Positions 10,061 through 58,146 of a stretch of 64,000 nt of DNA are shown piece by piece. The stretch comes from an uncultured virus (IMG/VR IMGVR_UViG_3300030329_002885) (taxonomy: Duplodnaviria > Heunggongvirae > Uroviricota > Caudoviricetes > Crassvirales). Numbering within the stretch: position 1 is the first letter of the stretch; each line of letters begins with the position of its first letter. A program made the translations under genes and the position numbers. The notes beneath the pieces are model-generated. The model saw nothing but the letters and a program-made list of their open reading frames with translations. It did not search any database and had not been told where the DNA came from. Location: the IMG/VR virus record IMGVR_UViG_3300030329_002885; one strand, given 5' to 3'.

Positions 10061-10158
10061 AACAGTAGTTTTTCTTTCTTAATGTCTACACCTCTCATGA
10101 TCAACTCACGATAAATATATAACATCCAATCGTTGTAGCTTAATCTCTTTTTTTTCAT
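10057..10158 (-). CDS. Tiny peptide (33 aa)
   Basis: MKKKRLSYNDWMLYIYRELIMRGVDIKKEKLLL; A-rich leader and ATGA overlap. Confidence 0.5.
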   Translation of the reverse strand: MKKKRLSYNDWMLYIYRELIMRGVDIKKEKLLL

Positions 10159-10169
10159 AATTATATATT

Positions 10170-10334
10170 TTAATGGTAAGCAGGACATAAAGTGTAAGTT
10201 TTATGATAATTTGAATTAGCGCAACTTGCTGTGCTTGTGCAAGAATTCATAAATAACATAATCATTATTATACCAGCTATTATAGCTGCTATATTACCTC
10301 GCCTTTTAGCGATTTTAAACTCTTCTTCAGTCAT
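10170..10334 (-). CDS. Small putative lipoprotein (54 aa)
   Basis: MTEEEFKIAKRRGNIAAIIAGIIMIMLFMNSC-TSTASCANSNYHKTYTLCPAYH: basic N-region, hydrophobic core, lipobox-like SC. Confidence 0.6.
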   Translation of the reverse strand: MTEEEFKIAKRRGNIAAIIAGIIMIMLFMNSCTSTASCANSNYHKTYTLCPAYH

Positions 10335-10350
10335 ATCTTTATTTATTTAG

Positions 10351-10572
10351 TTAATATTCATCAGGATGTCTATGAAGTGCGTCTTCTAACTGAGCACATT
10401 CAGTAGACAATTTTCTTACTTTATCTTTAAGCTTATTGTTTTCTTCTAATAATTTAATAACTTTAGCTTGATTATTTATAGTTGCAATTTGTGATTTAAC
10501 TAAATGTTGTATGTCTATTACAGTTTTATTATCTGCTTCATAGATTAACATTTCATTTTTTACTTTATCCAT
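10351..10572 (-). CDS. Small coiled-coil protein
   Basis: Heptad pattern and A-rich leader. Confidence 0.55.
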   Translation of the reverse strand: MDKVKNEMLIYEADNKTVIDIQHLVKSQIATINNQAKVIKLLEENNKLKDKVRKLSTECAQLEDALHRHPDEY

Positions 10573-10590
10573 AGTTTTATTTATGTTTAA

Positions 10591-10743
10591 TTAATGTTTA
10601 GGTTAAAAACTATTATAAGTCAGGAGTTGTTAGTAGTATTATGTACACTTATACTAAAGCTTTTGATCCATTAGCCTGTAAAGAGCCATCATAGCAATCT
10701 TGTGCTAGGCTCACCTTATGATAGTTAATGTTTAGGTTAAAAA
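10591..10743. repeat. 19-bp direct repeat flanking a multi-stem element
   Basis: TTAATGTTTAGGTTAAAAA at 10591-10609 and 10725-10743. Confidence 0.85.
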
Positions 10744-11131
10744 GAACAGTTTAAATACTTATTCAGGTATTATTTTGTCCCCCAGTTCTCTGTTAACGAG
10801 TGTAGTGCCTGGTGGTATCACATTTATCTACTTTATATCTAAAGAGCTTACACCATCACAGATGTCTTTAGTTTAGATTTGTATTAATAAAGTAAGAGCT
10901 GTGCTAAACTCTTACTTTTTACATTGAATGTTCAGTAACAAGTATTACGACAAATAATAGAGCACAAACCTCACATTCTATATTAATAAAAGGCTGTATC
11001 GCAGCTCACACCTCAATTTAGGGTGTAACGGAAGGATTCATCAGCCTCTTCTAGTCATAAGTGTTACCTTTTAATTTAGCATCTTCATATATGTAGATTA
11101 CTAACATTAATATTAATATCTCCATCATATC

Positions 11132-11341
11132 TTATTTTTTATAGTATTCTATCCATAAAGAATCAGATTGATATTTATATTCTGTCCATAATTTATCTAT
11201 TTCACGTTGAACATTGTTTCTATGAAATAGTTGTTCATCTGTTAATTTTGTTGTTCCACAGGATGATGTTAATAGTAATATTATAATTGCTATAATAACC
11301 ATTATACTTAATCCTATAGAGTTAGCTTTTGTATTTGTCAT
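11132..11341 (-). CDS. Small lipoprotein
   Basis: Hydrophobic core followed by the lipobox LTSSC. Confidence 0.7.
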   Translation of the reverse strand: MTNTKANSIGLSIMVIIAIIILLLTSSCGTTKLTDEQLFHRNNVQREIDKLWTEYKYQSDSLWIEYYKK

Positions 11342-11694
11342 CTTGTTATTTTTAAGTTAAACTTTATTTTAATAAATAATAAAACATTTAATAGGTTGAC
11401 AAATTCCACCTTTAAAATCTAAGCTAGTTAATTCTAGACAGTTATACAGTAACTGCATTAAAGTTTTGGTCTCTTCCATTAATTACTATCGCTATTAATA
11501 ACTAATTAAATTATGGCGCTTCATTAATTTTAAATCCTACTAAATGTTATATTATATTATGTTGTTAAATTGATTAATTGTTAAATTGTGGCATAATGTG
11601 CCGTGTGAGACTTAGCACACATATTCACGAACTCTTTCCGTAATTTAGTGAGAGTCTTTGTTTGTGTGTGTGTTTGTCTTTGTTTGTGTTAAAT

Positions 11695-11730
11695 AAAAAA
11701 GAGAAAGACTGCACATTAAAGTGCAATCTT
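11695..11730 (-). terminator. Intrinsic terminator
   Basis: Minus strand AAGATTGCAC-tttaat-GTGCAGTCTT then TCTCTTTTTT; the stop codon of 11716-11901 lies in the loop. Confidence 0.7.
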
Positions 11731-11901
11731 AGCTCCAACTACAAATGAATCAAATATAGATTCAGTATAAGTAGTGACTATCTTACCTAATACGATTGTG
11801 CCGTCAGGCGCAACGTAATCAGCTGTCTTACCACAACGCATTGGTTGTCCATGCCTATCCGCTTGCGTAGCGAATACCTTAGTTAATTCTACAGTTTCCA
11901 T
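11716..11901 (-). CDS. Hypothetical protein, first gene of the leftward arm
   Basis: 61-aa ORF with A-rich leader and its own terminator. Confidence 0.65.
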   Translation of the reverse strand: METVELTKVFATQADRHGQPMRCGKTADYVAPDGTIVLGKIVTTYTESIFDSFVVGAKIAL

Positions 11902-12065
11902 AATATTTACCTTTTTTTGAGTTTTAATAGTGGGTACTCAATTTACCGAAACATAGTAGGGGTCTTTGTCAGTGTTGGTTCCCACGCTCACAGATCCTGT
12001 CCTAAAAAATTTTTTTTATATTTGAAATTTAACATTTACGTAACATACGTCAGTAAAATACTACT

Positions 12066-12073
12066 TATATTTG
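12066..12073 (+). promoter_or_regulatory. Bacteroidota -7 promoter box
   Basis: TATATTTG ending 4 nt before ATG 12078. Confidence 0.45.
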
Positions 12074-12077
12074 TAGT

Positions 12078-12149
12078 ATGAGACGATTAGATATATCCCC
12101 TATAGTATATATTCTTTTAATGATTTGTATGTTTTTAGTTGGATTGTAA
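12078..12149 (+). CDS. Putative leaderless hydrophobic peptide (23 aa)
   Basis: MRRLDISPIVYILLMICMFLVGL directly after a -7 box. Confidence 0.4.
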   Translation: MRRLDISPIVYILLMICMFLVGL

Positions 12150-12168
12150 TATTTTTTTATTATTTTTG
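12139..12168 (+). promoter_or_regulatory. Bacteroidota sigma-A promoter for the ncRNA candidate
   Basis: TTG(12139-41)-N19-TATTTTTG(12161-68). Confidence 0.65.
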
Positions 12169-12172
12169 CATC

Positions 12173-12440
12173 GCAACATTATCACCCTACGGTAACCAAA
12201 AATAGGGAAAGACATCGGATTGTAGACCCAAATAGGGTTAGAGTTTTCTCCGGTAGTTGCAAAAAGAGTTAGTGTATAAACTTTAGTTAGGGTACAATTA
12301 GCACACAGGTAAGTGCGGTGAATTAACATCAGTTTTAGTATCCTTGGGTCCCGTAAAAGGAGCACTGCTAAAGTGAAATCCAAACTTGAAATTAAAATCT
12401 CCAAGGGGGAAAACTATATCTAGTTCTTAACCCTGTCTTA
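12173..12440 (+). ncRNA. Candidate large structured non-coding RNA, family unassigned
   Basis: GC-richer than its flanks, no credible sense ORF, bracketed by two promoters. Long-range helices: AAGACA/TGTCTT, GGGTTA/TAACCC, AGTTTTCTC/GGGAAAACT, CCTTGG/CCAAGG, plus local hairpins. Confidence 0.6.
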
Positions 12441-12459
12441 AAACTTTTCTTAAAAAATA

Positions 12460-12492
12460 TTTGGAAGTATAAAAAAATAATTTATATATTTG
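12460..12492 (+). promoter_or_regulatory. Bacteroidota sigma-A promoter for the groES-terminase operon
   Basis: TTTG-N21-TATATTTG. Confidence 0.65.
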
Positions 12493-12511
12493 TCAAAAAA
12501 ATATATAGATT

Positions 12512-15267: not shown

Positions 15268-15539
15268 TGGATTTTTTAGAAGACTTAGAGCTTTATGAGC
15301 GAGCAATGAATAATGCTTATGATCTTATAACTAAACGTAAAACTTTAGATGATATTTATTATGAATTGGAAGAAGATACAATAGATATTTTTCCTTTACC
15401 ATTTGACCCAATAATAGAGGATGGTAGGACTGATGATATAATAGATATGGTTATTGAGCATTTTACAAGTACAGAAGAGTATGAAAAATGTGCAGAGTTA
15501 GTTAAGATTAAAAATAAATGCCAAGATTTAAGAATATAG
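15267..15539 (+). CDS. Small acidic protein with UVR-like motif
   Basis: FTSTEEYEKCAELVKIK. Confidence 0.55.
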   Translation: MDFLEDLELYERAMNNAYDLITKRKTLDDIYYELEEDTIDIFPLPFDPIIEDGRTDDIIDMVIEHFTSTEEYEKCAELVKIKNKCQDLRI

Positions 15540-17488
15540 ATAGATTAAGACCTGCTGCTTTACAGTTTCTTAATACTGGAAGCTATACTAATACCTTACC
15601 TGGTACAAGAGAGTATTATGAGTTTTGGGATGAAGAGCGTAGAAGGTGTTTATATGGATATAAAATTGATGAACTAGAAATAACTGGATTTCACTATTTT
15701 TATTTAAATTATTGTCCTATTGATAGAGCTGTAGATGAAGAATTACCAGACGGTACTACACAAGCTAAACGTGAGAGAACATTCCCTAGATTTTATGATG
15801 GAGATCATAAATATTTTACTGAAATAGATAAAGCTAGAGCAGAAAATAAACATATGATTGTTTTAAAAGCAAGACGTAAAGGATATTCCTATAAAGCTGG
15901 ATCTATGTTAGCTAGAAACTACTTTTTTGTAAAAAATTCTAAAAACTTTGTATTTGCAGCACAAAAAGAATACTTAATTGGGGATGGTCTTTTATCTAAA
16001 GCTTGGGAGTTCTTATCTTTTATAGATGACCATACAGCATGGGCGCAACCTAGATTAAAAGATAGGGAAATGCATAAAATGTCTGGGTATAAGAAAAAAG
16101 TAAATGGATTAGAAATTGAAATGGGGATGAAGTCTCAAATACTAGGTGTAAGCTTAAAAGATAACCCAGATAAAGTAAGGGGTAAAGCAGGTGAGCTAGT
16201 ATTTTTTGAAGAAGCAGGATCATTTCCAGGATTATTAAAAGCATGGGAGGTAACAATGCCTACAATGCGTCAAGGTAGTAAAACTTTAGGAATGATGGTA
16301 GCTTTTGGTACGGGTGGTACAGAAGGAGCGGATTTTGAAGCAATGGAAGAAATATTTTACAATCCTGATGCATATGATTGTATGAGTTATGAAAATACAT
16401 GGGATGAAGGGGCTATGGGAACTACATGTGGGTATTTTATTCCAATACAAACTAATTTAGATGGATTTATAGATGATCAAGGTAATTCTTTAGAAGAAAA
16501 AGCTATAGAATATGAAACAGAAATGAGGGAAAAAAAGAAGGGTGCTGCGGACGCAAAATCATTAGACCAATATATAGCGGAGCACCCTTTTTCTCCTCAA
16601 GAAGCTACTCTACAGATTACTTCTAATTTATTTGATATAGCTTCTTTGCAAGAACAGTATAATATTGTTAAAGCAAGGGGTTTACAAAGCATTGGTACTG
16701 TAGGTAAGTTGTATCATGATAAAAATGGAGAAGTTAAGTTTACTGTTGATGGAGATTTAAAACAAATTACAAAGTTTCCACATAGAAAAGATGATGATAA
16801 AACAGGAGCTGTAGTAATATACGAAGCTCCATATAAAAATGAAAAGCAACAAGTTCCTCATAATTTATATGTAATTTGTCATGACCCTTATGGGCAAAAT
16901 CAATCTGCAGATAGTACATCTTTGGGTGCAGCATATGTATTAAAACGTCCTAATAATTTATCAAGACCTGATGATCTTATTGTAGCCTCATATGTAGGGA
17001 GACCTAAGACACAAGATGATTATAATAGGAATTTATTTTTATTAGCTGATTATTATGGGTGTAAAATAGGATTTGAGAATGATCGTGGTGAGGTTATAGC
17101 CTACGCTAAAAGATATAGGAAGTTACACAAACTACAAGAAGAGTTTGAGATGTTAGATAAAAAAGAACTTAGAAGTAGAACAGTAAAACGTCAATATGGG
17201 ATGCATATGACTGAAGCAAGGAAGCGTCAAGGTGAGATATATATAAGAGATTGGCTAAATACTGTAAGAAGTACTGATGAATCTGGAAAACAATTACTAA
17301 ATTTGCATAAAATTTATGATCCAGCTTTATTAACTGAGTTAATTAAATTTAATCATCAGGGTAACTTTGACCGTGTAATGGCGTTTATGATTGGTATGTA
17401 TCATACTAGAGAATTATACAATGCAGAGGTTAAAGATATACTAGAAGATAGAGCCACGGATAAATGGTTTGATCAAAATTATTATTAA
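15518..17488 (+). CDS. terL: Terminase large subunit
   Basis: LKARRKGYS (Walker A variant), FFEEAG, FGTGG, CHDPY, FEN, NFDRVMA. Confidence 0.93.
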   Translation: MPRFKNIDRLRPAALQFLNTGSYTNTLPGTREYYEFWDEERRRCLYGYKIDELEITGFHYFYLNYCPIDRAVDEELPDGTTQAKRERTFPRFYDGDHKYFTEIDKARAENKHMIVLKARRKGYSYKAGSMLARNYFFVKNSKNFVFAAQKEYLIGDGLLSKAWEFLSFIDDHTAWAQPRLKDREMHKMSGYKKKVNGLEIEMGMKSQILGVSLKDNPDKVRGKAGELVFFEEAGSFPGLLKAWEVTMPTMRQGSKTLGMMVAFGTGGTEGADFEAMEEIFYNPDAYDCMSYENTWDEGAMGTTCGYFIPIQTNLDGFIDDQGNSLEEKAIEYETEMREKKKGAADAKSLDQYIAEHPFSPQEATLQITSNLFDIASLQEQYNIVKARGLQSIGTVGKLYHDKNGEVKFTVDGDLKQITKFPHRKDDDKTGAVVIYEAPYKNEKQQVPHNLYVICHDPYGQNQSADSTSLGAAYVLKRPNNLSRPDDLIVASYVGRPKTQDDYNRNLFLLADYYGCKIGFENDRGEVIAYAKRYRKLHKLQEEFEMLDKKELRSRTVKRQYGMHMTEARKRQGEIYIRDWLNTVRSTDESGKQLLNLHKIYDPALLTELIKFNHQGNFDRVMAFMIGMYHTRELYNAEVKDILEDRATDKWFDQNYY

Positions 17489-17902: not shown

Positions 17903-20209
17903 ATGGGATACGATAAAATACCGAGACAAAAACTCTCGATCACTAAGAAAAATAAAAAGTGGGGTGAAGAATGTGTAGAAGCATTTATAAATCTGTCTAA
18001 TTCAGGGACTAGCCACTCACACAAAAAAGACGAATTAAAAATATTATATGATTACTATAACGGTGTAATTGATGAGGCTGATTATAATTACGTACTAAAA
18101 CCTTATGGCAAAGCTCGTAAGAATTTTCCTTCTGAAATGCGTAATTACCCTATTATCAAACCCATAATTGACCTTCTTCTAGGGGAAAAATCTAAAAGAC
18201 CTCTCAATTATACTGTTACAGTACAAAATTCTGATAGTATTACAGTTAAAGAAAATGCTAAAGCAGAATTAATATTTAAAAATTTACAACAGCATTTTAT
18301 GCAGGCTGTTCAAGAGCAAGGAGAAGATATGGGACAAGATCCTAATCAAGAAGTGCAATTGCCAGAGCATATTGCATCAATGTTTGATAGTACATATGTA
18401 GATCAAAGAGCTGTATTAGGTCAACAATCTTTAAACTACATAATGCAAGAACAAGAAGTATATGATAAGATACAAAAAGCTTGGTTTCACTATTTAGTTA
18501 CAGGAGAATGCTACACACACAGAGGTGTAAGAAATAGAGAACCTTTTTATGAAATATTAAACCCTTTAGATGTAGATTATGATCTTGATCCAGACTTAGA
18601 ATTTGTAGAAGATGGAGATTGGGCTTTAGTAAGAAAATATGTACACGCATCTAGTGTAATTGATGCTTATTATGATAGTTTATCAGAACAACAGATTTTA
18701 GAATTAGAAGAACCTAGACATTCGGAAACTGATATTTCTTTTTTATATGCTAATTCTGGTAATAGAGATGTTAACGCTTTTAGAAATAGATTAATTGAAG
18801 TTATAAATGTATACTGGAAGTCTAGAAAAAGAATAGGGTTTTTAACCTATGAAGATCCAGAAACAGGAATGGCTGAAGTACAAGAAGTAGAAGACGGATA
18901 TAGAATGCCAGCAGAAATGAGAGAAGCTGGAGCTAAATTAGATTGGAGATGGGTAAATGAAGTGTGGGAAGGAACAAGAATTGATGGTAGATTTTATATT
19001 AATATAAATCCTATTGCTAATCAAAGAATATCTATAGATAACCCATCTAAATGTAAATTACCTATTAATGGTAGAAGATACTCAGATATAAATTCTCAAA
19101 ATATTTCTTTAGTTAGACTTGGAATACCTTATCAGTTAAATTACAATATTTATAAATATAGATTAGAACTTGCAATAGCTAGAAGTAAAGATATTATTGC
19201 ACAGTTTGATATTAACATGATTCCAAAGAAGTGGGACATGGATAAATTTATGTATTATGTAGAAGGTACAGGTATTGCTTGGGTAGATTATAATAAAGAA
19301 GGGATACAACTAAATCCTCAGCATCAATCTGTATTAGACATGTCTATTAAAACTATTCAGCAATATATTACATTATTAGAATCTATTTTAGTAGAATGGG
19401 AAAAAATATCTGGAGTAAGTAGACAAAGACAGGGTGAAATTGGAGCATATGAAGGTAAAGCGTCTTCACAACAAGCTATATTACAATCATCACACATTAC
19501 AGAAGATTTATTTAGAAAGTTTGAAAGAATGGAACAAAGAGATTTTCAAGCATTATTAGACTATTCTAAAGAAGCATGGTTAACAGGTAAGAAAAGCATG
19601 TATGTAATGCCTGATGGTACAACAGACTTTTTGGATCTAGATAGTTTAGAGCATTTAGAAACTAACTATGGTATATTTGTTTCTGATGCAGGAAAAGATC
19701 AAGAGAAGCTACAAAATATTAAAGGATTAACACAAGCTATGATTCAAAACGGTGCAAAACCAGGAGACTTAGCTGAAATGTTAGATTCAGATAGTTTCCA
19801 ACAAATTAAGAAAAATTTAAAAGCTGCTGATAAAGCTCAACAAGAATTAGAACAAGCTCAGCAACAAGCTCAACAAGAAATGCAACAGCAACAGTTAGAA
19901 GCAGAGCAAATGAAGCAAGAAGTTGAAAATATTGAAAAAGAAAAAGACAGACAAAAAGATATTGAGATTGCTTTAATAAACGCAGAATCTAAAAAAGATG
20001 TTGAAGCTTCTGAACTTAACTTACAAAAAATGATGCAAGACTTTGAATTTAAACAAAGAGATTTAGATTTAAGGGAACAAGAATTAGAAGAAAAGCGTAG
20101 AGGTAATATGGCAACAGAAAATATTACTAGAGATGCAAATCAGGTAAAAAGAGAAGATAGTAAAATTAAAAAAGATATAGCTAAAAAGAATGCTAACAAA
20201 CGCTCGTAG
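17903..20209 (+). CDS. Portal protein
   Basis: P.QKL...K...W, NYPIIKPIIDLLLGE, WVNEVWEG, SGVSRQRQG and a C-terminal Q-rich coiled coil, as in crAss-like portals. Confidence 0.9.
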   Translation: MGYDKIPRQKLSITKKNKKWGEECVEAFINLSNSGTSHSHKKDELKILYDYYNGVIDEADYNYVLKPYGKARKNFPSEMRNYPIIKPIIDLLLGEKSKRPLNYTVTVQNSDSITVKENAKAELIFKNLQQHFMQAVQEQGEDMGQDPNQEVQLPEHIASMFDSTYVDQRAVLGQQSLNYIMQEQEVYDKIQKAWFHYLVTGECYTHRGVRNREPFYEILNPLDVDYDLDPDLEFVEDGDWALVRKYVHASSVIDAYYDSLSEQQILELEEPRHSETDISFLYANSGNRDVNAFRNRLIEVINVYWKSRKRIGFLTYEDPETGMAEVQEVEDGYRMPAEMREAGAKLDWRWVNEVWEGTRIDGRFYININPIANQRISIDNPSKCKLPINGRRYSDINSQNISLVRLGIPYQLNYNIYKYRLELAIARSKDIIAQFDINMIPKKWDMDKFMYYVEGTGIAWVDYNKEGIQLNPQHQSVLDMSIKTIQQYITLLESILVEWEKISGVSRQRQGEIGAYEGKASSQQAILQSSHITEDLFRKFERMEQRDFQALLDYSKEAWLTGKKSMYVMPDGTTDFLDLDSLEHLETNYGIFVSDAGKDQEKLQNIKGLTQAMIQNGAKPGDLAEMLDSDSFQQIKKNLKAADKAQQELEQAQQQAQQEMQQQQLEAEQMKQEVENIEKEKDRQKDIEIALINAESKKDVEASELNLQKMMQDFEFKQRDLDLREQELEEKRRGNMATENITRDANQVKREDSKIKKDIAKKNANKRS

Positions 20210-22409
20210 AAGAGAATTATTGGATAACGTTAGAAGATCAGGGTATCCTGGGAGTATCTCTGAAGTTTTTCAGGCTGCTCAGGGTGGTAGAGATTTAGTT
20301 AGAGAATTTGAAATGCAACAACAGCAACAGCAAGAAATGCAAGTTGCTAATACTCCAGAAGAACAAGAAATAGGATTAAGAGAAGAACATGCAGCAGGCA
20401 ATACAGATGCTAGTATGGCCTTCCCTAATGTACAGCCTAACCAATCATTTAATACGGTTGGGATGCAAGCTCCTATTGATATACAAAAAATAGATAACCA
20501 AGGACATTTAGTAGAAAGCTATAAAAATGTACCTCCAGGAATACAAGACTTACCAACTGGTCCTGCAGAAGGAACAATAATAGAATCACCAGCTGCTTAT
20601 CAAAAAGGTGGATTTAATTTTAAGAAAAAATTTGATTATAGCCCTGAAGCTATAAAAGAAAGACAAGCAAAAGGAGTAGATTATGAAAATTTAGAACTAG
20701 CAGCTTCTTTTGCACCTTATATGGGAGAAGTAATTGATGCTAAGAATACTATTCAAAGTTTACGTAAAGGAAAGTATGGTGATGCTGCATTACATGCTGC
20801 AGGTTTTGCAATTCCATTTGTTCCAGGAGGAGCTATTGTAAGAGGATACAACAAATTACGTACTAAGATTAATCCTAATGTTGTAACAGATGTATTTGGA
20901 AATGTAATAAAAAAGAAAGGTGCAGTTAGATTAAATAGAATAGAAGATGCAAATATTACAAATAAAACATTTAATAAAGCAAGGCCAGATGGATCAATAC
21001 CATATGAATCAGGTAATTGGTATAGCGATCAAATAGAACCTTTTTATCTAAATAAAACTAAAGTAGCAGGAACTGCAGATGAACTATTGCCTATGGATGC
21101 TAATAGAAGAGTAATTACTGGATATTTAGATCCAAAGGATGCTGAAAAATTTAATGTATTACAGTCTACTAAAGAAGCTATATCTATGAGTGGTGGTAGA
21201 GGAAATTTACCAATAGCCTCTGAATATGTTTTACCGCCAGATATTACAAGAAGGTTAAGAGAAAAAGGTAAAATATTAAAGCCTAAAAGTGCGCTTGAAG
21301 AGTTAACAAATTTTTATAAAAAACAAGGAGGTTTTCAATATCAAAAAGGTGGGACTAAATTTTCTATAGGAGCAGAAGGTAATGTAAATTGTCTTCCAGG
21401 AGTTGCTGGTTGTTATGGTTATGAATCTCCATTAACATTAAAACCAAATTTTGCATTTACATACGATACTGGACGTAAACATATTGGAGTGCAAGGGGGA
21501 GCAGACCTTCAAACATATTTTGGAGGTTCTGACACAAGAGAAGGAGCTCCTGTATTAGCAGGAGGAATATCAGGAGGTATAGGTACTAATCCTACTTCAA
21601 AAGAATTAGAAACATCTAAACATTTATCATTAATAGGTAAATTAGGATTTAAAAGACGTAATCTAGAAGGAGCTCATGACTGGTCTTCTTTTAATCCTGG
21701 TTGGGATGCAGGTCTTTATGGGAAATATGATTTACTTAATAAACAACTTCAAGATGTAGGAGTTTACGGAAGTTATGGTGCTTTAGAAGCTAGTTTAGGA
21801 TACAACCCTACACAAAAAATGCTTCAAGCTGGATTAGGATTAAGATTAGGGAAAAGACAAACAGGTGGAATAAAAAAATATCATGAAGGAGGTTATAGCG
21901 AACATTACGGACAAAATATAGATCCTGATGCACCTCCTCATATGTATGAGCCTCCTCACGGTACTCCGCAAGGTGATCAAGATAATATGTATACTGGCTC
22001 TAATCCTTTATATGGAGGAAATTTAACTGATACTGGAGCTAATGCACAATACACAAACTTTAATATGCTTCGACATAGGGGTACGCATTGGGAAGTTCCA
22101 CAATGGACAGGCCTTCTTGGAAATCCAACAGCAGGTATGTCTGCTCAAAGAATTGTACGATCAGCTTCAAAAGGTGAAGAAATGTATGGACCTGTTGGTG
22201 CAGTAGGAGGAGGAATATATGGAATGGCAGAACCTTTAGTTAAAAATTATGCAACAGGATATTTAGGAGATGTTGGAAAAAAATATGGTAAAAAGGCAGC
22301 AAAAAAATTTCTTCCTAAAGCTATAAGTAGATGGTTTAAAACAGGTGGAACTAAAAAAAGAGGATACAAAGGATATAAACAAAGAATTTGTAAATACGGA
22401 TGTATGTAA
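20190..22409 (+). CDS. Modular putative head-cargo or effector polyprotein with xxxGG linkers
   Basis: Four dissimilar segments separated by YQKGG, KQGGFQYQKGG, RQTGGIKKYHEGG and FKTGG. Confidence 0.55.
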   Translation: MLTNARRRELLDNVRRSGYPGSISEVFQAAQGGRDLVREFEMQQQQQQEMQVANTPEEQEIGLREEHAAGNTDASMAFPNVQPNQSFNTVGMQAPIDIQKIDNQGHLVESYKNVPPGIQDLPTGPAEGTIIESPAAYQKGGFNFKKKFDYSPEAIKERQAKGVDYENLELAASFAPYMGEVIDAKNTIQSLRKGKYGDAALHAAGFAIPFVPGGAIVRGYNKLRTKINPNVVTDVFGNVIKKKGAVRLNRIEDANITNKTFNKARPDGSIPYESGNWYSDQIEPFYLNKTKVAGTADELLPMDANRRVITGYLDPKDAEKFNVLQSTKEAISMSGGRGNLPIASEYVLPPDITRRLREKGKILKPKSALEELTNFYKKQGGFQYQKGGTKFSIGAEGNVNCLPGVAGCYGYESPLTLKPNFAFTYDTGRKHIGVQGGADLQTYFGGSDTREGAPVLAGGISGGIGTNPTSKELETSKHLSLIGKLGFKRRNLEGAHDWSSFNPGWDAGLYGKYDLLNKQLQDVGVYGSYGALEASLGYNPTQKMLQAGLGLRLGKRQTGGIKKYHEGGYSEHYGQNIDPDAPPHMYEPPHGTPQGDQDNMYTGSNPLYGGNLTDTGANAQYTNFNMLRHRGTHWEVPQWTGLLGNPTAGMSAQRIVRSASKGEEMYGPVGAVGGGIYGMAEPLVKNYATGYLGDVGKKYGKKAAKKFLPKAISRWFKTGGTKKRGYKGYKQRICKYGCM

Positions 22410-22474
22410 CAAGTGCTATATAATAAAGAAAAAATCAAAAAATAAAAAACTATAAAAAATATCAATATAATTAT

Positions 22475-22482
22475 TAATTTTG
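22475..22482 (+). promoter_or_regulatory. -7 promoter box for the scaffold and capsid operon
   Basis: TAATTTTG in an A-rich intergenic gap. Confidence 0.5.
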
Positions 22483-22505
22483 TAACTTAAAACTAAAAAC
22501 AATAT

Positions 22506-23603
22506 ATGGAACCAAACGAAAAAATACAATTAGACGACATTACTTTTGACGATGTAATCGCAGGGGATGGAGTTGATACAGTTGCTATCGATGAGATCGA
22601 AAAGCCTGTAGAAGAAGAAGTAAAAGAAGAAGTAAAACCTGAAGAAACTACTGACGAGCTTGAAGATATTGAAGACAAAGTAGAAGAAATAGAAGAAACC
22701 GAAGACGTACAAAAAGAAACAGATGATGATGTAGAGCCATCTGATGATACTGAAAATACTGATGATACAGTTGTGTCAGAAGTATTAGCTAAATTAGGTT
22801 ATGAGGTTGATCAGGCGTATGAAGATACGTCTGAAGGATTAGCTGAAATGACAAAAGATATAGCATCTCAAATGGCAGACGATAGAATTGATCAAGTTCT
22901 TGAGGCGTTTCCTTTAGTTAAACAACATTTGCAATATGTTTTAAACGGAGGACAGTCAGAAAATTTTATGCAGGCTTATGATCCAAATTTAGATTATAAT
23001 AAAATAGAGCTTGCAGAAGATGATTCTCGTAGCCAAAAAGCAATTTTATCTGATTACTTTATTACTAAAGGTCATGATAAAGAGTTTATAAAAGAAATGA
23101 TTGAAGACTATGAAGATTCTGGAAAATTACATAATAAAGCTGAAGCAGCAAGACAAGCTTTAGGTAAAGTACAGGCTCAACAAAAAGAACAAATGGTAGC
23201 AAAACAAAGAGAAGCTTTAGAAGTGCAGCACAAAGAACAACAAGAATTTTGGAATGGTGTATCAGAAACTATACAAAATTCTACAGAGTTTGAAGGGCTT
23301 AGAGTTCCAGAAAGAGAAAAAGCTAAATTTTTTGATTGGCTTTCTAGACCAGTACAACAAAATGGTTACACTCAAAGAGATATTGCACATGCAAACTCTA
23401 GTATGGAAACTAAATTAGCAGTTGACTATTTAATGTATAAAGGATTTAATTTAGAGTCAATTATTAATAGTAAAGCTAAAACTAAAGCAGCTACATCATT
23501 GAGAGATAAAATATCTAGAAGCGAAGAAACTGTAAAAAGTGCTCGTAAAAAATCTAGAGTAAGTAAAAATGTTGATTTAGATAATTTAGATCTTAACATT
23601 TAG
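22506..23603 (+). CDS. Acidic head assembly or scaffold-like protein (conserved crAss gene before MCP)
   Basis: Very acidic N-terminus, helical C-terminus, immediately upstream of MCP. Confidence 0.7.
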   Translation: MEPNEKIQLDDITFDDVIAGDGVDTVAIDEIEKPVEEEVKEEVKPEETTDELEDIEDKVEEIEETEDVQKETDDDVEPSDDTENTDDTVVSEVLAKLGYEVDQAYEDTSEGLAEMTKDIASQMADDRIDQVLEAFPLVKQHLQYVLNGGQSENFMQAYDPNLDYNKIELAEDDSRSQKAILSDYFITKGHDKEFIKEMIEDYEDSGKLHNKAEAARQALGKVQAQQKEQMVAKQREALEVQHKEQQEFWNGVSETIQNSTEFEGLRVPEREKAKFFDWLSRPVQQNGYTQRDIAHANSSMETKLAVDYLMYKGFNLESIINSKAKTKAATSLRDKISRSEETVKSARKKSRVSKNVDLDNLDLNI

Positions 23604-23650: not shown

Positions 23651-25096
23651 ATGGCAGTAAACGGAACAAATATTAGCGTCCAAAAGACGTTTTATAATGA
23701 TTCGCAAATGACTGATATGAACAGTCTTGCAAATGCATTATTATCAAAGCCTACTGAACTGTCTCCGATTATTACTCATTTAGCAGGAAAAGATGATAAA
23801 AGATTCCCTTTATCTTTCTTAACGGAAGGTGTTGGTAACACAAAATCTATTGACCGCTTGGAGTATGAATATCGTGTGGCAACACATAGATTAAGAACGA
23901 GACCAGTAGCAGCGGCTGGACCATCAACGAATGTAGGTTTAGGAGGATCAACTTTTGAGTTAGAATTTCCTGATAAACACTTTGTATTTCCATACGTATT
24001 AGTATCTCAATCAGGTACTCAAGCACGTATTATGAAAGAACCTGAGCAAGTAGCTGGGGGAACTTCATGGAAATATACATTACAATTAGTAAACCCATCG
24101 GCTACAGCAACAGTTGCTGATGCTGATTGTGTGGCAGGAGCGCTTTGGGCGCAAATGTACGCACCAGTAGGAGTTGACTTCTCTAGAGGTAACGCTTCAA
24201 ACTGGGAAACTCCAGGACTAGTAAGAAACAAATTAACTACGGTTAGAAAGTCTTACCACATGTCTGGAAACGCTAAAGACTATGTAGCAGAATTCTCTTT
24301 ACCAACTAAAGGTGGATCTACTACTAAACTTTGGATGGACTATGAAGAGTACTTACACATGCTTGACTTTAAAGAAGAGTGTGAAATGTACTACTGGTAT
24401 GGTCAAAAGTCTTATGATTCAAATGGACATACTTATATGAAAGATGAGAATGGACAACCTGTAATCATAGGTCCAGGTCTTTTAGAGCAAATTGTTGAAA
24501 CAGACACTTACTCTACAATGACTGAAACAAAATTAAAGAACATCATCGGTGACTTATTCTACGGAATGACTGATGCTGCTCAAAAACAAGTAACTCTTTA
24601 CACTGGTACTGGTGGAGCTCGTGAATTTGATGAAGCTCTTAAATCTCACTTCTCAGGTAATACTTGGAAAGTAGGTGGTGAGAACAGATTCATCACAGGT
24701 TCTGGTAGATCATTAGGTTTAACTGGTTACTTTACTTCTTATGAGCATGTAGATGGACATATGGTTAATGTGGTAAAACTTCCACTATTTGACCATGGTG
24801 CAGTTGCACAAGCTCGTCAGAAGCATCCAACAACTGGATACTCTCTTGAATCTTATAGAATGGTATTTGTTGATCAATCAAATTATGATGGTCAAAATAA
24901 CCTACAAATGATCTCTAAGAAAGGTCGTGAGTCTATGAGATGGTGTGTAGCTGGATCTGTAGTCCCTAGAGGATTTGATTCAACTTCTGCTAGAGCATCT
25001 GATGTTGACGGAGCAAGCGTTCATATGTTAAAGACAGCAGGTATTGCTCTTAAGAGATTTGATACTTCGCTTGATATTACATGTGTAGCGTCCTAA
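23651..25096 (+). CDS. Major capsid protein
   Basis: D.NSL..AL...P, RNKLTTVRKS, GPGLLEQI, LYTGTGGAREFD, HPTTGYSLESYRMVF; followed by a strong terminator. Confidence 0.9.
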   Translation: MAVNGTNISVQKTFYNDSQMTDMNSLANALLSKPTELSPIITHLAGKDDKRFPLSFLTEGVGNTKSIDRLEYEYRVATHRLRTRPVAAAGPSTNVGLGGSTFELEFPDKHFVFPYVLVSQSGTQARIMKEPEQVAGGTSWKYTLQLVNPSATATVADADCVAGALWAQMYAPVGVDFSRGNASNWETPGLVRNKLTTVRKSYHMSGNAKDYVAEFSLPTKGGSTTKLWMDYEEYLHMLDFKEECEMYYWYGQKSYDSNGHTYMKDENGQPVIIGPGLLEQIVETDTYSTMTETKLKNIIGDLFYGMTDAAQKQVTLYTGTGGAREFDEALKSHFSGNTWKVGGENRFITGSGRSLGLTGYFTSYEHVDGHMVNVVKLPLFDHGAVAQARQKHPTTGYSLESYRMVFVDQSNYDGQNNLQMISKKGRESMRWCVAGSVVPRGFDSTSARASDVDGASVHMLKTAGIALKRFDTSLDITCVAS

Positions 25097-42017: not shown

Positions 42018-42032
42018 ATAAATAAATAAAAT

Positions 42033-45678: not shown

Positions 45679-46224
45679 ATGGGAGGCAAAAGAAAATTAA
45701 TGAAAAAAGAAAAAATGATGTATCAAACAGGAGGAGAGTCTGATGCAAAAAAAGCTGCTAGAAAAAATGTTGTTAAAGACATAAACATAACAACAGATAT
45801 GACTAAAGAAAAAAAGTTTAGAAAAAAAGCTAAAAAAAGATTAGCAAAGGGAAAAAATATAGATAAATTAATAGAGAGAAATCTAAAACGAAAAGAAAAA
45901 CAAAATTTAAAAGATTTACCAAAGCCAAATAAGAAAGACACAATGTATCAAAAAGGAGGAAAATCTTCAGAAGGTCTTAAAAAAGGTCTAATGGCGCTAT
46001 ATGAAAATAGAAAAGCCGCAGGACTACTAACAACAGTTCAAGATACAACAAGAAGAGATACTGCAACTCCAGTGGACACCAAATCACCAAAGCATAAGAA
46101 AAAATATAATAAAAAACTAGTAGGCGGTAAAACGAAAAAAATGATGGGTGGAGGAATGAAAAAGATGATGTATAAGTCAGGTGGATTCTTAGAGCCAGGT
46201 ATTCCTAATATAGACGATTTATAA
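45679..46224 (+). CDS. Very lysine-rich protein with repeated MYxxGG motifs
   Basis: MMYQTGG, TMYQKGG, MMYKSGG; highly basic. Confidence 0.6.
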   Translation: MGGKRKLMKKEKMMYQTGGESDAKKAARKNVVKDINITTDMTKEKKFRKKAKKRLAKGKNIDKLIERNLKRKEKQNLKDLPKPNKKDTMYQKGGKSSEGLKKGLMALYENRKAAGLLTTVQDTTRRDTATPVDTKSPKHKKKYNKKLVGGKTKKMMGGGMKKMMYKSGGFLEPGIPNIDDL

Positions 46225-54113: not shown

Positions 54114-55355
54114 ATGAACAGACGACAAATAAAAAATAGAAATAAAAGAGCCATGATGTATAACATGGGTGGCTATAAAAGCAGATATAACCTAGGAGGA
54201 ATGGATACTATAGGAAGACCAATTAGACCAATAGGTCCTCAAGGTCCTGTGGGGGCACCCCCTATGCCAGAACAACCTCCACGTCCTGGTACTATGCAGA
54301 CGGGAGGAATGTATGCTGATAATACTGTATCAGGTGCTGGGCGACAACTAAATCCTAGACAGACTGCTGTAACTGTGTTTCAAGAAACTGATCCAAGACT
54401 TCAAGAGCAAAGATTAAAAGCATTACAGGATGAAGAATCTAGATTAAGACAAGCATCTTCTCAAGCTGTTGCTGATGCAGAAAGAATGGCGCAAGAAGGA
54501 GAAATCTTAGGAGAGCGAGCAGCGCTTGAAGGTATGGATCAATTTCAAAAAACAGCAAGCACAATAGAAACAGCTGCAACAGCTCCTATAGCTGGTGAAT
54601 TAGCTGCTCAAAAAAGTGCATTATTTCAAGGAGCAGCAGACGCCTACAGAATACAAAGAGCAGCTAACTTAGCACAGAAAGCATCTCAACTTGGTGGTGG
54701 AGTAGAATCAGCTAAAATGATTCAAAAAGCTAATGACCTTTTACAAGTAGGTAAAGCAGGAACTGAGGGAGCTAGAAGTTTAGGAACTGTAGCAGGAACG
54801 CAAGCAGGTGTACAAACTACAGGGCAAGTGGCTGGAGCAACTGCTGGAGGAACAGGTAGTGCTTTAGCAGCAGGAGCTAAATCATTTTTAAGCTCTGGAG
54901 CAGGTCTTGGATTAGTAGCTTCTGGTTTAGGTTATGGAGTTAAAAAACTTTGGGCAGATGATGATCCAACTACTTTTGATGCTGGAGATGCAGTAGGTAG
55001 TACATTAAGTGGTGCAGGAACAGGTATGGCTATTGGTTCAGTTGTACCAGTTATCGGTACTGGAGTGGGAGCAATTGTTGGGGGATTATACGGTCTTGGT
55101 AAATCTTTCTTTGGTTCTAGAAAAGCTAAAAGAGAAAAAGAAGAAGCAGAAAAAAGACAAAAAAGAAAAATTAAAAGAGCAGTAGATAAACATAATAAAG
55201 AGGTAATGAAATCTTTCACATCTCAAAAGTCAGCTGTTAGAGCAGGAGAGTTAGGCCAAAAAACTTATGCAGGGTATAATTTAGGTGAAAATGTAATTGC
55301 TCAAATGGGAGGAATGAGAATGGGAATTCCTAGATACGGTTACGCAGCCGCTTAA
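54114..55355 (+). CDS. Ejected cargo or pilot protein with glycine-zipper hydrophobic hairpin
   Basis: GAGTGMAIGSVVPVIGTGVGAIVGGLYGLG followed by a basic coiled coil. Confidence 0.6.
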   Translation: MNRRQIKNRNKRAMMYNMGGYKSRYNLGGMDTIGRPIRPIGPQGPVGAPPMPEQPPRPGTMQTGGMYADNTVSGAGRQLNPRQTAVTVFQETDPRLQEQRLKALQDEESRLRQASSQAVADAERMAQEGEILGERAALEGMDQFQKTASTIETAATAPIAGELAAQKSALFQGAADAYRIQRAANLAQKASQLGGGVESAKMIQKANDLLQVGKAGTEGARSLGTVAGTQAGVQTTGQVAGATAGGTGSALAAGAKSFLSSGAGLGLVASGLGYGVKKLWADDDPTTFDAGDAVGSTLSGAGTGMAIGSVVPVIGTGVGAIVGGLYGLGKSFFGSRKAKREKEEAEKRQKRKIKRAVDKHNKEVMKSFTSQKSAVRAGELGQKTYAGYNLGENVIAQMGGMRMGIPRYGYAAA

Positions 55356-55371
55356 AATAAAATAATATAAT

Positions 55372-58146
55372 ATGTTTAGAAAAAAGTTTATAGATAGACT
55401 AAGAGAAAAATATCAAAAAGGAGGACAACGTACAACAATTGATCCAAAAACTTTCCAATTTCTTAGACGAAATAATTTAATAGCTCCAGCACCTGATGGG
55501 GGAACAGTTAAACCTGAAGATACTAGTATAAGAAATAAAATGTATCAAGCTGCTATGAAAGCGACTAACTTTACGTTAGGTCCTGACGCAACTGCAGGAT
55601 TACCTAGTCAATTTATTATGGAAGCTACAGGTATTCCTTCTTTTCTTAGACTTCCAACTTCAGCATCAGAAGCTTATAAAGATCCAAGTGCAAAAAATGT
55701 TTTTAATGCAGCACTTGATGTAGCGGGAGTAGCTGGTGCTGGTAGTGTTATTAGAAGTGCTATTAGACCTGCAACTACTGTAGCACAAAGTACTAGTCCT
55801 GTGATAAATACACTTAGAACAAGTAGAAGTGTTTTAGATAAAGCTAAAAAGATACAACTAGCAAAAAAACATGATCAGTTTAGGACAAAGACTCCTGAAC
55901 AAATGCCTGTAAATACTCCTAAAGTAAATCTAGCAAACTTAATAAAACAAACTCCTGTTTCTGTTTCAGAAACTACAGCCGCACCTATAGTTAATGTTAA
56001 TGTTGATAAGTATAAGATTGATCCTAATCAAGCTAAGCCAGACCTTTCATCATTTTTTCCAACTTCAATGCAAACAGGTGGAATGTATAATCAAATGATA
56101 CAGTATCAGCAAGGTGGAATAGCATTACCTGGAGGAGAAATGCAGCCTATTCCAGGAACTGATGCGGTAGAGTTTATAGGACAAAGCCATGATGAAGGTG
56201 GTATTATGGTTGATCCACAAACAGAAGTAGAAGGTGGAGAAACTATGGATCAAGTAACAATGGCTAAACATGGTGGTAAAAGAAAAGATTATTTCTTCTC
56301 TTCTTATTTAAAAAGAGGAGGTAGATCGTTTGCAGACATACATAAAGATATATTAAAAAAAGGCGGTAATCAAAAAGATATTGATATGTTAGCTAAAATG
56401 CAAGAAAAAGCTGCAGGTAGAAATCCTAAAAAAGTAGCTAAGCTTGGAGGTATAGCAAAATATCAAGCTGGTGGATCAACAGATTTACAAGGAAACTTAA
56501 GGAATATAAACTTATCAAATTATGACATAATAGATGATGGTAGTCCTGTTGATGTACAAGATGTTATATCTGGTAATGTAGATGCTACAATTGATCCTTC
56601 TGATCTTAATACAGATGCTCAAAGCGCTATTAATTTTTTACAAAGATTTCAAAGTAATCGTTTAACTTTAGACGAACTTAGAGAAAAGTATCCTGATTAT
56701 CCTTATCAAGATATATTTTCTTTAGAATTACATCATAAAGAAGTTTTAGATGGAAATGTTAATGCAGACGGATCACCTACTGAACAAGGTAAAGAAAGAG
56801 CCGAAGAAATTAAAGCTTTAGAAGAAAAGAAAGATAATAAAGAAAAGAAAAATAAACCTGTATATACAAGTCCATTTGCAACTAAAGAAGAAGAAAAAGC
56901 ATTCCAAGATTGGGCTAATACACAAGGATATGATACTAAAGGGTATGGGTGGGGACCGGCTAGTCAAGCTATTTATGATCAATATAGTGGTGATTATGAA
57001 ACCTATGTGTCTAATTTAGAAAAAGCCGAAGAAGAGTTAGCTGAAACAGATATTACTAAGATTGATAATGATAAAGATGGAGTCTTTGCTGATGTAGACT
57101 TAGATGACAATGATCCAAAAATAGGAGAAAAAGTAGAAAGTGAAGCTGATAGAATAAAAAGAGAACGACAAGAAAGAAGAGATGCAAGAAGACCTTCTGA
57201 TGATGTTAAATATCAAACACTTTATGATAATTTACATCAGAGAATACTAGATGGAAGAGAACTTGATGCAGATGCACAAGCGGCTTATGATGAGGCTGTT
57301 AATTATTTAGGTGAAGATAGAATGACAACGAGGGAAAGAAAAGCAGAAGCAGATCGTATAGCAGCAGAACAACAGCAATTTGATGAATATAGAAAAGCTG
57401 CTTTAGCTCAAGGCGATACTCCAGAGTTAGCTAAGTGGGCAGGACTTGCACAATTAGCTCCTGCAGTATATGCAATGACACATAAACAACCTGCAGCAGA
57501 GCAAGCTGTGTATACTCCTGGCTTTACTGAGCCTATTGTAGCAGAAAGAGGTAAAGCATCAGATTTAGAAAGAGTTAATTATAATGCTGAAAGAGCAGCT
57601 AATGCTGCAGAGATGAGAGGTATTAATAGATTTATTGAAACTTCTGGAGGTGGACCAGCTAACATAATAAATAAAATGTCTGCTTATGCTAGAAAGCAAG
57701 CAGGTGATATGAAGATTACTGCAGCTGAAACTAGAGCTAATATTGATATAGCTAACAGAGAAGCACAGTTAGAACAACAAATGGAGTTAAGTAACTTACA
57801 AAGAGCTCAACAAGCAGCTACAATTAATGCTCAAATGCAAAGACAAGAAACAGCTAGAATGGATCAAATAGATATGTTTAATGCTCAAGCTAGACAAAAA
57901 CTAAAAGATGATCAAGAAGCTATGAAATATCAAGGTATAGGATTAGCAGCTCAAGGTATAGCTGGAATAGCTGGAGATATTATGTCTTACAGAGGACAAG
58001 AAAGATTAGCTAGAGCTTATGGAAATCAAGGAATCTATGAAAGAGATTTACTTAGAAACTATTTAAGACAAACTGATCCTAAATTTAAAGATATGTCAGA
58101 TCCAGATCTTAATGCATATATAACTCAATTTAATACACAAACATAA
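55372..58146 (+). CDS. Ejected cargo protein
   Basis: G.SH..GG...EVEGGE domain, xxxGG motifs, C-terminal Q/A-rich coiled coil; lies in the cargo block. Confidence 0.6.
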   Translation: MFRKKFIDRLREKYQKGGQRTTIDPKTFQFLRRNNLIAPAPDGGTVKPEDTSIRNKMYQAAMKATNFTLGPDATAGLPSQFIMEATGIPSFLRLPTSASEAYKDPSAKNVFNAALDVAGVAGAGSVIRSAIRPATTVAQSTSPVINTLRTSRSVLDKAKKIQLAKKHDQFRTKTPEQMPVNTPKVNLANLIKQTPVSVSETTAAPIVNVNVDKYKIDPNQAKPDLSSFFPTSMQTGGMYNQMIQYQQGGIALPGGEMQPIPGTDAVEFIGQSHDEGGIMVDPQTEVEGGETMDQVTMAKHGGKRKDYFFSSYLKRGGRSFADIHKDILKKGGNQKDIDMLAKMQEKAAGRNPKKVAKLGGIAKYQAGGSTDLQGNLRNINLSNYDIIDDGSPVDVQDVISGNVDATIDPSDLNTDAQSAINFLQRFQSNRLTLDELREKYPDYPYQDIFSLELHHKEVLDGNVNADGSPTEQGKERAEEIKALEEKKDNKEKKNKPVYTSPFATKEEEKAFQDWANTQGYDTKGYGWGPASQAIYDQYSGDYETYVSNLEKAEEELAETDITKIDNDKDGVFADVDLDDNDPKIGEKVESEADRIKRERQERRDARRPSDDVKYQTLYDNLHQRILDGRELDADAQAAYDEAVNYLGEDRMTTRERKAEADRIAAEQQQFDEYRKAALAQGDTPELAKWAGLAQLAPAVYAMTHKQPAAEQAVYTPGFTEPIVAERGKASDLERVNYNAERAANAAEMRGINRFIETSGGGPANIINKMSAYARKQAGDMKITAAETRANIDIANREAQLEQQMELSNLQRAQQAATINAQMQRQETARMDQIDMFNAQARQKLKDDQEAMKYQGIGLAAQGIAGIAGDIMSYRGQERLARAYGNQGIYERDLLRNYLRQTDPKFKDMSDPDLNAYITQFNTQT

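Follow-up and report, generated by a model that had tools for sequence, protein, structure and literature searches.

Exchange of modules at a conserved Gly-Gly joint in a putative cargo protein encoded behind the portal gene of a marine crAss-like phage

The 64,000-nucleotide stretch of uncultured-virus DNA IMGVR_UViG_3300030329_002885 (the whole of which is referred to below as the window) belongs to a marine crAss-like phage, read here as a podophage, and carries directly behind its portal gene an open reading frame (ORF; 20190..22409) whose 739-residue product, P0001, consists of self-contained modules that meet at a short motif ending in two glycines, at which relatives of the protein exchange whole modules. 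The product is probably a polyvalent cargo protein, one which would lie inside the virion, be packaged in the head and be ejected at infection. The modular architecture, the exchange, the gene context and the folds of two of the domains can be read from the data described below; packaging, ejection and the action of the joints are what we infer from them, head packaging being suggested by the position of the gene and by likeness to known crassvirus cargo proteins. An earlier annotation made from the sequence alone (the original prediction) had described the gene product as a series of effector-like segments; its swappable modules, its carrier domain, its beta-strand module and its view of the genomic slot have stood up to the present analysis, while its pre-toxin hairpin and its enzyme-like domain have found no support.

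The strict form of the joint motif, [YFKR][QKH][KQTE]GG, occurs at six sites in P0001 against a mean of 0.09 expected, a count which none of 20,000 shuffled sequences reached. The looser form [YF]xxGG occurs at five sites against 1.06 expected (P=0.0035), and the plain GG dipeptide is not enriched (16 against 12.3, P=0.15). The strict sites make up four joints, two of them tandem (Table 1), whose coordinates had been given exactly in the original prediction, and its division of the protein into four segments at these joints is borne out by the relatives P0002 to P0005, in which the segments behave as separate modules. A fifth [YF]xxGG site which had been overlooked, FVPGG at residue 210 (20817-20831), lies inside module A and marks no border. 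Because the Gly-Gly codons vary among the sites (GGT GGA, GGA GGT, GGT GGG), the motif represents a constraint on the protein and not a repeat in the DNA, and a Shine-Dalgarno or DNA-repeat reading of it is ruled out by the same differences. The AlphaFold2 predictions give the joints a per-residue confidence (predicted local distance difference test, pLDDT) below 50 beside well-folded domains. Logos computed from 122 first, 266 internal and 63 last sites of the family have the form [Y/F/K]-Q-[K/T]-G-G-[F/L/V/Y]-[K/R]-K, and in the tandem form the GG is followed by two to four mostly basic residues and then by Y-x-x-GG. The C-terminal tails of the proteins resemble the first half of a tandem joint, and the leaders of the separate genes described below resemble the second half.

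A search of 5.8 billion proteins returned 98 matches of 409-1271 residues, and the family set used for the counts that follow comprises 99 proteins. Most of the 98 matches cover just 19-24% of P0001, namely its N-terminal ~140 residues, at 57-85% identity; some 130 relatives have only the N-terminal 136 residues in common, often together with a short basic tail, and the identity of this N-domain across the relatives is 57-98%. The strict motif is present in 87 of the 99 family proteins, with 211 sites against 5.5 in shuffled sequences (maximum 13 in 200 shuffles). A loose motif falls between residues 100 and 160 in 96 of the proteins, a motif followed by a short basic or aromatic tail lies at most 30 residues from the C-terminus in 50, and tandem joints 6-10 residues apart form 73 pairs in 51. 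When the proteins were cut at the motifs and the pieces were clustered at a reciprocal coverage of at least 0.7, about 97 module families were obtained, of which M0, the N-domain, is present in 91 of the 99 proteins and the others recur in varied positions and combinations. Borders between modules in the family of about 130 relatives mostly carry the motif: the internal end points of BLASTP alignments lie at a median distance of 4 residues from a motif, compared with 65 residues for random places (n=11,762), and of the end points beyond residue 175, 32% fall within 5 residues of a motif, compared with 5% of random places (n=2,678). Profile comparison of a reduced set of module families with hhalign linked M8 to M13 (97.5%) and M7, a module carrying the SLT domain, to M13 (81%), and it gave no link for M4 and none between the barrel families M1 and M5.

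The exchange is most direct in close relatives. P0004 is P0001 without residues 142-388, the junction falling within YQKGG; P0002, which is 99% identical to P0001, contains one extra module of ~209 residues placed directly after residues 716-720 and shares the same tail; and in P0003 and P0005 another module, of 134 residues, has been swapped in at the same joints. Contigs from two marine sequencing runs of two other studies (X4 and X11) join position 22345 of the window to position 22368 with 647 foreign letters between them, which encode the extra module of P0002, and outside the insert they are ~99% identical to the window (22 differences in ~2,550 positions). The same 647-letter insert appears in the loose ends of runs X7 and X12. 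Since the insert is found in X4 and X11, natural populations are polymorphic in their modules, and the polymorphism was not produced by the assembly of a single sample. A further candidate junction, joining 20631 to 22678 in runs X7 and X11, was set aside because one of its sides consists of only 21 letters, and a gap in the coverage of run X12 at 21921-22324 was given no weight. Thirty closed ORFs at the locus range from 151 to 1048 residues in length. The original prediction had called the segments a swappable cassette, and had proposed that the post-portal gene be collected from related genomes and searched for exchange at the motifs; that collection, and independently the marine runs, reveal such exchange, and in place of full-length conservation with borders unrelated to the motifs, only the N-domain and the tail were found to be constant.

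These two constant parts can be regarded as a chassis. For residues 1-147, AlphaFold2 (40 sequences, pLDDT 82, residues 138-147 below 50) predicts three helices (residues 4-48) followed by a beta domain (residues 49-136, modelled over ~50-134). The Pfam family DUF192 (PF02643) matches P0001 with E=7.9e-6, matches 63 of 67 relatives scanned at E<=1e-3, and exceeds its cut-off of 27 bits in several relatives, among them P0010 (31.6 bits), P0036 (31.4) and P0029 (31.1). Comparison of the modelled beta domain with known structures leads to the same family: Foldseek aligns it to the DUF192 crystal structure 3m7a_A (E=5.1e-4, root-mean-square deviation (rmsd) 2.5 A over 91 columns), and VIA ranks 3pjy_B (Z 10.4) and 3m7a_B (Z 9.8) highest, the next best score being 6.4. 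As modelled, the beta part of the N-domain has the DUF192 fold seen in 3m7a and 3pjy; sequence searches of the PDB, made with the N-domain both singly and in profile form, gave nothing meaningful. Invariant residues of the N-domain include Q59, S110 and E132, and H67 is nearly invariant. The carrier-like N-terminal domain of the original prediction thus corresponds to the constant module family M0. Minimal forms of 143-186 residues, some of which lie on contigs of 14-53 kb, are made up of the N-domain, a single joint and the tail (examples are L035, 151 residues; P0161, 149 residues on a 52.9-kb contig; and P0153, 143 residues); the 186-residue forms carry an added mini-module of 30 residues, and L032 (313 residues) has one further module between two joints. 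The existence of forms free of modules implies that the chassis is a functional unit with a job of its own and that the modules are an optional load. Prediction of a complex between the portal and the N-domain gave no answer (score 0.00) and is neutral on binding.

The load of P0001 comprises three modules. The first ~100 residues of module A (A1) are reused in other proteins directly after a joint and with other partners, so far as sequence comparison goes in the manner of a reusable adaptor. A pre-toxin-like helical hairpin had been proposed for this segment; no homology of A1 to pre-toxin domains was found, Pfam scans of A1, A2, B and C at E<=10, PT-TG included, having returned nothing except a chance-level DUF4440 row for A1 (residues 142-242). 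Nor did the enzyme-like domain proposed for module A find any match by Pfam at that threshold or in the ESM Atlas, where the module returned one viral cluster at 0.89 that was not usable. Module B, which had been described as an amphipathic beta-strand module, is predicted to be a closed beta-barrel of outer-membrane type. AlphaFold2 applied to the module and its joints (residues 384-568, 29 sequences) gives a pLDDT of 82 and a predicted template modelling score of 0.75 and shows nine long strands between disordered joints, and a full scan with VIA places a designed transmembrane barrel (Z 12.1) and the outer-membrane protein OprF (4rlc_A, Z 10.2, rmsd 2.8 over 117) at the top, followed by OpcA (9.7), PagL (9.2), OmpA (9.1) and NspA (8.8). 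The strands alternate hydrophobic faces with polar or small ones, there is a conserved pair of cysteines, and the last strand reads QAGLGLRL. Among 1.84 billion representative sequences, module B has 25 relatives at E<=1e-3, which occupy varied positions in mosaic proteins with joints on their flanks, some of them together with a divergent N-domain. Module C is module family M9, with six members, and a glycine-zipper reading of it fits the letters.

The relatives carry domains of kinds usual in injected or virion-borne proteins. Pfam scans of 67 of the 99 family proteins found, besides DUF192 in 63, SLT in nine and Phage_lysozyme2, a Kdo/kinase domain and ART-PolyVal in one each, the last in P0042 at 32.9 bits against a cut-off of 31.2. 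The metallopeptidase signature HExxH occurs at ten sites in nine of the 99 proteins, against 0.9 expected, and is absent from P0001.

The joint motif is not confined to this family. In the other 59 ORFs of the window there are four strict sites against 0.5 expected (P=0.003) and five [YF]QxGG sites against 0.32, and all of them lie in two ORFs, a very basic one of 181 residues and a putative cargo ORF of 924 residues. The 181-residue ORF has three motif sites 75 residues apart, of which the C-terminal one is kept in the related genome G001. In these two ORFs and in a third, of 413 residues, the motif closes a basic N-terminal leader of 14-20 residues, and leaders and motif are kept by the relatives G001 and G004, a variant in G002 ending in AG. 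The load of the post-portal gene is itself divided in two loci, L019 and L020, where the first gene lacks the tail and its stop codon coincides with or adjoins the start of a second gene (L019:11503-13848, L020:12762-15035); this second gene begins with a 13-residue basic leader followed by YQTGG and ends with GG and a basic tail, and its product in L019 contains two HExxH sites and a sub-threshold match to Reprolysin_5 (E=4.5e-4). A related pattern is found in the cultured PhiCrAss001 (L055, MH675552), in which gp45 (41987-44515), cargo protein C1, contains nine aromatic-x(0-2)-GG sites against 2.5 expected (P=0.0002); it begins with a basic leader closed by FDTGG, has sites reading FAEGG, AFGG and FAYGG, and has a C-terminus with KGG and basic residues. 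Among the 24 proteins of the PhiCrAss001 virion block that were scanned, gp45 stands out, loose matches elsewhere being scattered, mainly over tail fibres and tailspikes. According to Bayfield 2023 (PMC10172136), residues 425-552 of gp45 are located on the portal and residues 214-245 in the tail barrel; the portal-bound domain ends shortly before the FAYGG at residue 559. A tblastn search of cultured phages with the 924-residue cargo ORF found no match.

The joint also stands in leaders, both those of other putative cargo proteins and that of the split second gene, and it is therefore probably recognised in trans, whether as an element for docking on, or threading through, the portal-tail channel or as a site of processing. 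Docking or threading without any cutting is a serious candidate, held with somewhat less than even confidence. Between the two ends of the fixed chassis, the helical and DUF192-fold N-domain and the basic tail, self-contained modules bounded by disordered joints are inserted, deleted and reordered in evolution. In the proposed mechanism the chassis would act in the head or portal region, and the protein would be made together with the portal, from overlapping genes, be built into the procapsid and be extruded through the tail at infection. The load, here the two-part module A, the outer-membrane-type barrel B and the glycine-rich basic module C, and in relatives SLT and lysozyme wall hydrolases and ART-PolyVal, kinase-like and HExxH metallopeptidase-like modules, would then come into play, the barrel, the wall hydrolases and the membrane-active modules breaching or crossing the envelope and the ART and kinase modules acting on the host.

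Several observations weigh against this account of the protein as ejected cargo. No homologue of the whole protein was found by tblastn in 50,697 records of cultured phages, and packaging is something that we infer only. In PhiCrAss001 the gene after the portal gene encodes a head fibre, gp21, and not a cargo protein (Bayfield 2023, PMC10172136), so that gene position alone is weak evidence. The motif of gp45 is looser, with F or Y within three residues of the GG, and no homology was found between gp45 and either P0001 or the cargo ORFs of the window. P0001 itself contains no recognisable enzyme; its DUF192 score, 26.4 bits, is slightly below the Pfam cut-off, and DUF192 is itself a family of unknown function. 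Module A has two parts, and the border between A1 and A2 near residue 240 carries no GG motif. Many alignment end points beyond residue 175 lie away from the motif, at a median distance of 32 residues, and it follows that not every break in homology is at a joint. For module B, Foldseek returned no match at E<=0.001, so that the check by structure prediction and search which the original prediction had proposed for each segment yielded the DUF192 fold for the N-domain and a barrel for module B by VIA and not by Foldseek; soluble barrels (nitrobindin, Rv2717c) also reach Z 8-9 against the module, and the comparison therefore does not show membrane insertion.

The joints could also be sites of cutting. 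In a true polyprotein they would be cleaved after GG, the modules being released in the head or after ejection and the leaders and tail being trimmed away, with analogues in the capsid-targeting sequences of T4 and in polyubiquitin with its C-terminal cap. This reading, which is rather unlikely, would account for the conservation of both flanks of the GG (Y/F, Q and K before it, a hydrophobic residue, K/R and K after it), for the 73 tandem joints, in which one site would end a module and the other would end the leader of the next, for the motif at the end of short basic leaders in three other ORFs and the split second gene, and for the short cap after the last GG in 50 of the 99 proteins. It is also consistent with an octet resembling the consensus beta-signal of the beta-barrel assembly machinery (BAM), which closes barrel modules immediately ahead of a joint or of the C-terminus in 39 of the 99 proteins, some by chance; such a signal usually acts near a free C-terminus. 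The HExxH modules of nine proteins and the weak Reprolysin_5 match of the L019 second gene could supply the activity, and such peptidases have been proposed for self-processing (Iyer 2017, PMC5512222). Against cutting stands the fact that Pfam recognised no protease in 46 of the 60 window ORFs of at least 70 residues, and that in G001, which is 97% complete, no fitting protease was recognised by Pfam in 51 of 83 ORFs or by PHROGs in 54 of 83, the exceptions being an endolysin of type M15 and, within the replication block, a DUF2201 metallopeptidase/VWA gene. Small ORFs and unfamiliar folds are outside the reach of such scans, and the lack of a recognised protease weakens cleavage without excluding it. 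In addition, P0001 has no HExxH, and the PhiCrAss001 papers mention no processing of gp45, containing neither 'cleav' nor 'proteoly'; the model of gp45 has a single chain that is present on either side of the portal. A wider proposal, which is frankly speculative and more probably wrong than right by a large factor, is that crass-type phages use the joint as a 'cargo code', in which GG-basic-Tyr-x-x-GG marks every polypeptide bound for the particle interior and is read in trans. In its boldest form the joint would be cut after GG by an unrecognised protease, for which the DUF192 domain itself would be a candidate, lying as it does in the classical portal-protease-scaffold-capsid slot and having the invariant Ser110 and Glu132 and the near-invariant His67. 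Cutting would release separate tools, one of them a phage-made outer-membrane barrel whose last, BAM-signal-like strand would become nearly C-terminal, so that the machinery of the host would build the entry pore of the phage.

Two further readings dispense with either the joint or the cargo. If the motif were a flexible, recombination-tolerant spacer read by nothing, junctions surviving in frame would simply fall in disordered linkers, and the predicted disorder of the joints, the commonness of GG as a hinge and the differing codons, which leave no signal at the DNA level, would all be as observed. A spacer has no need, though, of Y in 90%, Q in 77% and K in 50% of first sites or of the hydrophobic-basic pattern after the GG, and it would not be kept at the N-terminus of a split-off gene and in the leaders of unrelated cargo ORFs, which makes this reading decidedly improbable. 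It is very improbable, finally, that the protein is a head-assembly factor or an external decoration of head or neck which displays the modules on the surface of the particle. The head fibre gp21 of PhiCrAss001 and the minimal forms, in which the chassis works alone, are compatible with such a role; P0001 shows no similarity to gp21, however, and the Pfam and PHROGs scans gave no Ig-like, lectin or fibre domains, while wall hydrolases, ART-PolyVal and membrane-type barrels suit the inside of the host envelope and not a capsid surface, and ORFs behind the muzzle gene, where cargo is encoded, have the joint motif too.

As a cargo protein, P0001 can be compared with several known systems. MuF-type proteins are encoded directly 3' of the portal gene and combine a constant N-domain with a variable, effector-like C-terminus, and one of them, gp7 of SPP1, attaches to the portal and travels inside the head (Jamet 2017, PMC5576092). 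The window gene occupies the same post-portal slot, as the original prediction had stated, and likewise combines a constant N-domain with variable effector-like parts. It is nevertheless not a member of the family: PF04233 matches neither P0001, for which DUF192 is the only Pfam match at E<=0.01, nor any of the 67 relatives scanned. The carrier has the DUF192 fold, up to five modules or more stand in series in place of a single toxin, there is a conserved joint motif together with a C-terminal tail, and the phages are crAss-like phages of lytic type and not temperate ones; the words 'linker' and 'cleav' are absent from the searched text of Jamet 2017 (PMC5576092). Polyvalent proteins unite disparate domains in one chain, are encoded among virion genes and have been proposed to be delivered with the DNA (Iyer 2017, PMC5512222). 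P0001 answers to this definition, with four segments and a gene between those of portal and capsid, and the family includes ART-PolyVal, lysozyme/SLT and zincin-like peptidase modules, none of which is present in P0001 itself. The searched text of Iyer 2017 (PMC5512222) mentions no conserved inter-domain motif ('linker' and 'glycine' are absent), no DUF192 carrier and no 'crAss', and much of the load of the present family appears to be directed at the envelope (barrels, wall hydrolases) and not at nucleic acids. Closest in kind is gp45, also an internal protein of a crassvirus with aromatic-GG sites between structured parts and a glycine-zipper region, which differs in that its gene follows that of the muzzle and not that of the portal, in its looser motif, and in that no shuffling of modules is reported for it.

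The comparison extends to the well-known ejected proteins of other phages. The T7 proteins gp14, gp15 and gp16 are stored in the head and ejected before the DNA, and supply an outer-membrane component, a transglycosylase and inner-membrane parts; the internal proteins of T4 carry a short targeting peptide that is removed by the prohead protease. Whereas these are separate proteins of fixed content, the present protein strings its functions on one chain and exchanges them at one motif, and no prohead protease was recognised. The literature search found no paper on the motif or the family, subscription journals being outside its coverage, and among the matches listed for DUF192 none concerned phages by title.

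Within the theme of polyvalent, post-portal cargo, the new points are the DUF192 chassis, the joint that is common to other cargo proteins, and the barrel modules of outer-membrane type. Crass-type phages are among the most abundant viruses known. The close relatives described here, which differ just by whole modules at one short motif, constitute a natural experiment on the selection, packing and ejection of their cargo proteins, by which a packaging or processing signal of crassvirus cargo becomes testable at one defined motif. The family further provides a catalogue of about 100 unexplored modules, barrels of outer-membrane type included, that would be delivered to marine hosts of Bacteroidota type, and for the first time it places DUF192, a widespread domain of unknown function, in a clear biological context.

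Table 1. Features of the window relevant to the post-portal protein and to the motif, in order of position.
Feature	Position	Strand	Evidence or remark
Large terminase (TerL)	15518-17488	+	Pfam/PHROGs
SET-domain ORF, 118 aa	17469-17825	+	PF00856 E=1.9e-8
P22-like/crass portal gene	17903..20209	+	phrog_6547 E=3.6e-132; P22_portal
Post-portal ORF (P0001), 739 aa, ATG start	20190..22409	+	overlaps portal ORF by 20 nt
Constant N-terminal domain, aa 1-136	20190..20597	+	Pfam DUF192, AlphaFold2, Foldseek, VIA
Joint 1, YQKGG, aa 137-141	20598..20612	+	AlphaFold2 pLDDT <50
Module A, aa 142-376	20613..21317	+	A1 aa 142-~240 (20613-20909), A2 aa 241-376
Joint 2, tandem KKQGG (aa 377)-FQ-YQKGG (aa 384), aa 377-388	21318..21353	+	P0004 deletion junction here
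Module B, aa 389-555	21354..21854	+	predicted beta-barrel, 8-10 strands, outer-membrane type
Joint 3, tandem RQTGG (aa 556)-IKK-YHEGG (aa 564), aa 556-568	21855..21893	+	pLDDT <50
Module C, aa 569-715	21894..22334	+	Pro/Gly-rich stretch, glycine-zipper-like run, basic amphipathic stretch
Joint 4, FKTGG, aa 716-720	22335..22349	+	extra-module site in relatives
Constant basic C-terminal tail, aa 721-739 and stop	22350..22409	+	same tail ends P0002-P0006
365-aa ORF, possible scaffold	22506..23603	+	between post-portal ORF and capsid gene
Crassvirus major capsid protein	23651-25096	+	E=1.3e-79
Ring proteins 3/4, 2, 1	downstream of capsid gene	+	Pfam/PHROGs
181-aa very basic ORF between ring proteins 2 and 1	45679..46224	+	MYQTGG (15), MYQKGG (90), MYKSGG (165)
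Muzzle protein	47582-54112	+	Pfam/PHROGs
413-aa ORF directly after muzzle gene	54114..55355	+	basic leader ending MYNMGG, glycine-zipper region, near-C-terminal GG motif
924-aa ORF, putative cargo, two genes after muzzle	55372..58146	+	18-aa basic leader ending YQKGG; YQQGG aa 245

The surroundings of the gene are conserved. Among 37 IMG/VR loci which encode the N-domain at 60-98% identity, the portal gene lies directly upstream in 34, the remaining three having less than 330 nt of flanking sequence, and a homologue of the 365-residue ORF followed by the crass capsid gene lies downstream in 26, the other 11 loci stopping inside the post-portal gene or at most 350 nt past it. In a more distant clade an ORF of 135 residues with a DUF5856 domain (E=8.9e-18; L025:9597-10004, L021:3826-4239) is inserted between the portal gene and the DUF192 gene, and in this clade the first joint is MQ[KM]GG and not YQKGG. 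The SET-domain ORF, which sits between terminase and portal genes and overlaps the end of the former, keeps its position in most related loci; a protein of lysine methyltransferase type among head genes, beside a protein with conserved lysines in its joints, offers a possible lead.

Gene identities in the window were assigned with Pfam and PHROGs. The G+C content of the window is ~31%, its portal is only ~34% identical to the portals of gut crass phages, the public sequencing runs in which the stretch is present are marine metagenomes, and a search of the window for tRNA genes found none. An ORF of 1118 residues (38291-41647, plus strand) has an N-terminal MAM domain, the part that is also present in G001, and a C-terminal sorting domain of the type IX secretion system (Por_Secre_tail, E=3.8e-11), which represents a secretion signal of host type on a protein of the phage tail region and hints at a Bacteroidota host. 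The replication block is encoded on the opposite strand, and long ORFs are scarce at ~9800-12500, where the coding strand and the sign of the GC skew flip (~12 kb); the region may correspond to an origin or to divergent promoters. Among the tail genes there are also a staphylococcal-nuclease-like ORF (36600-36953, plus strand) and a thioredoxin-like ORF (37703-38059, plus strand), the latter of which is found in G001 as well.

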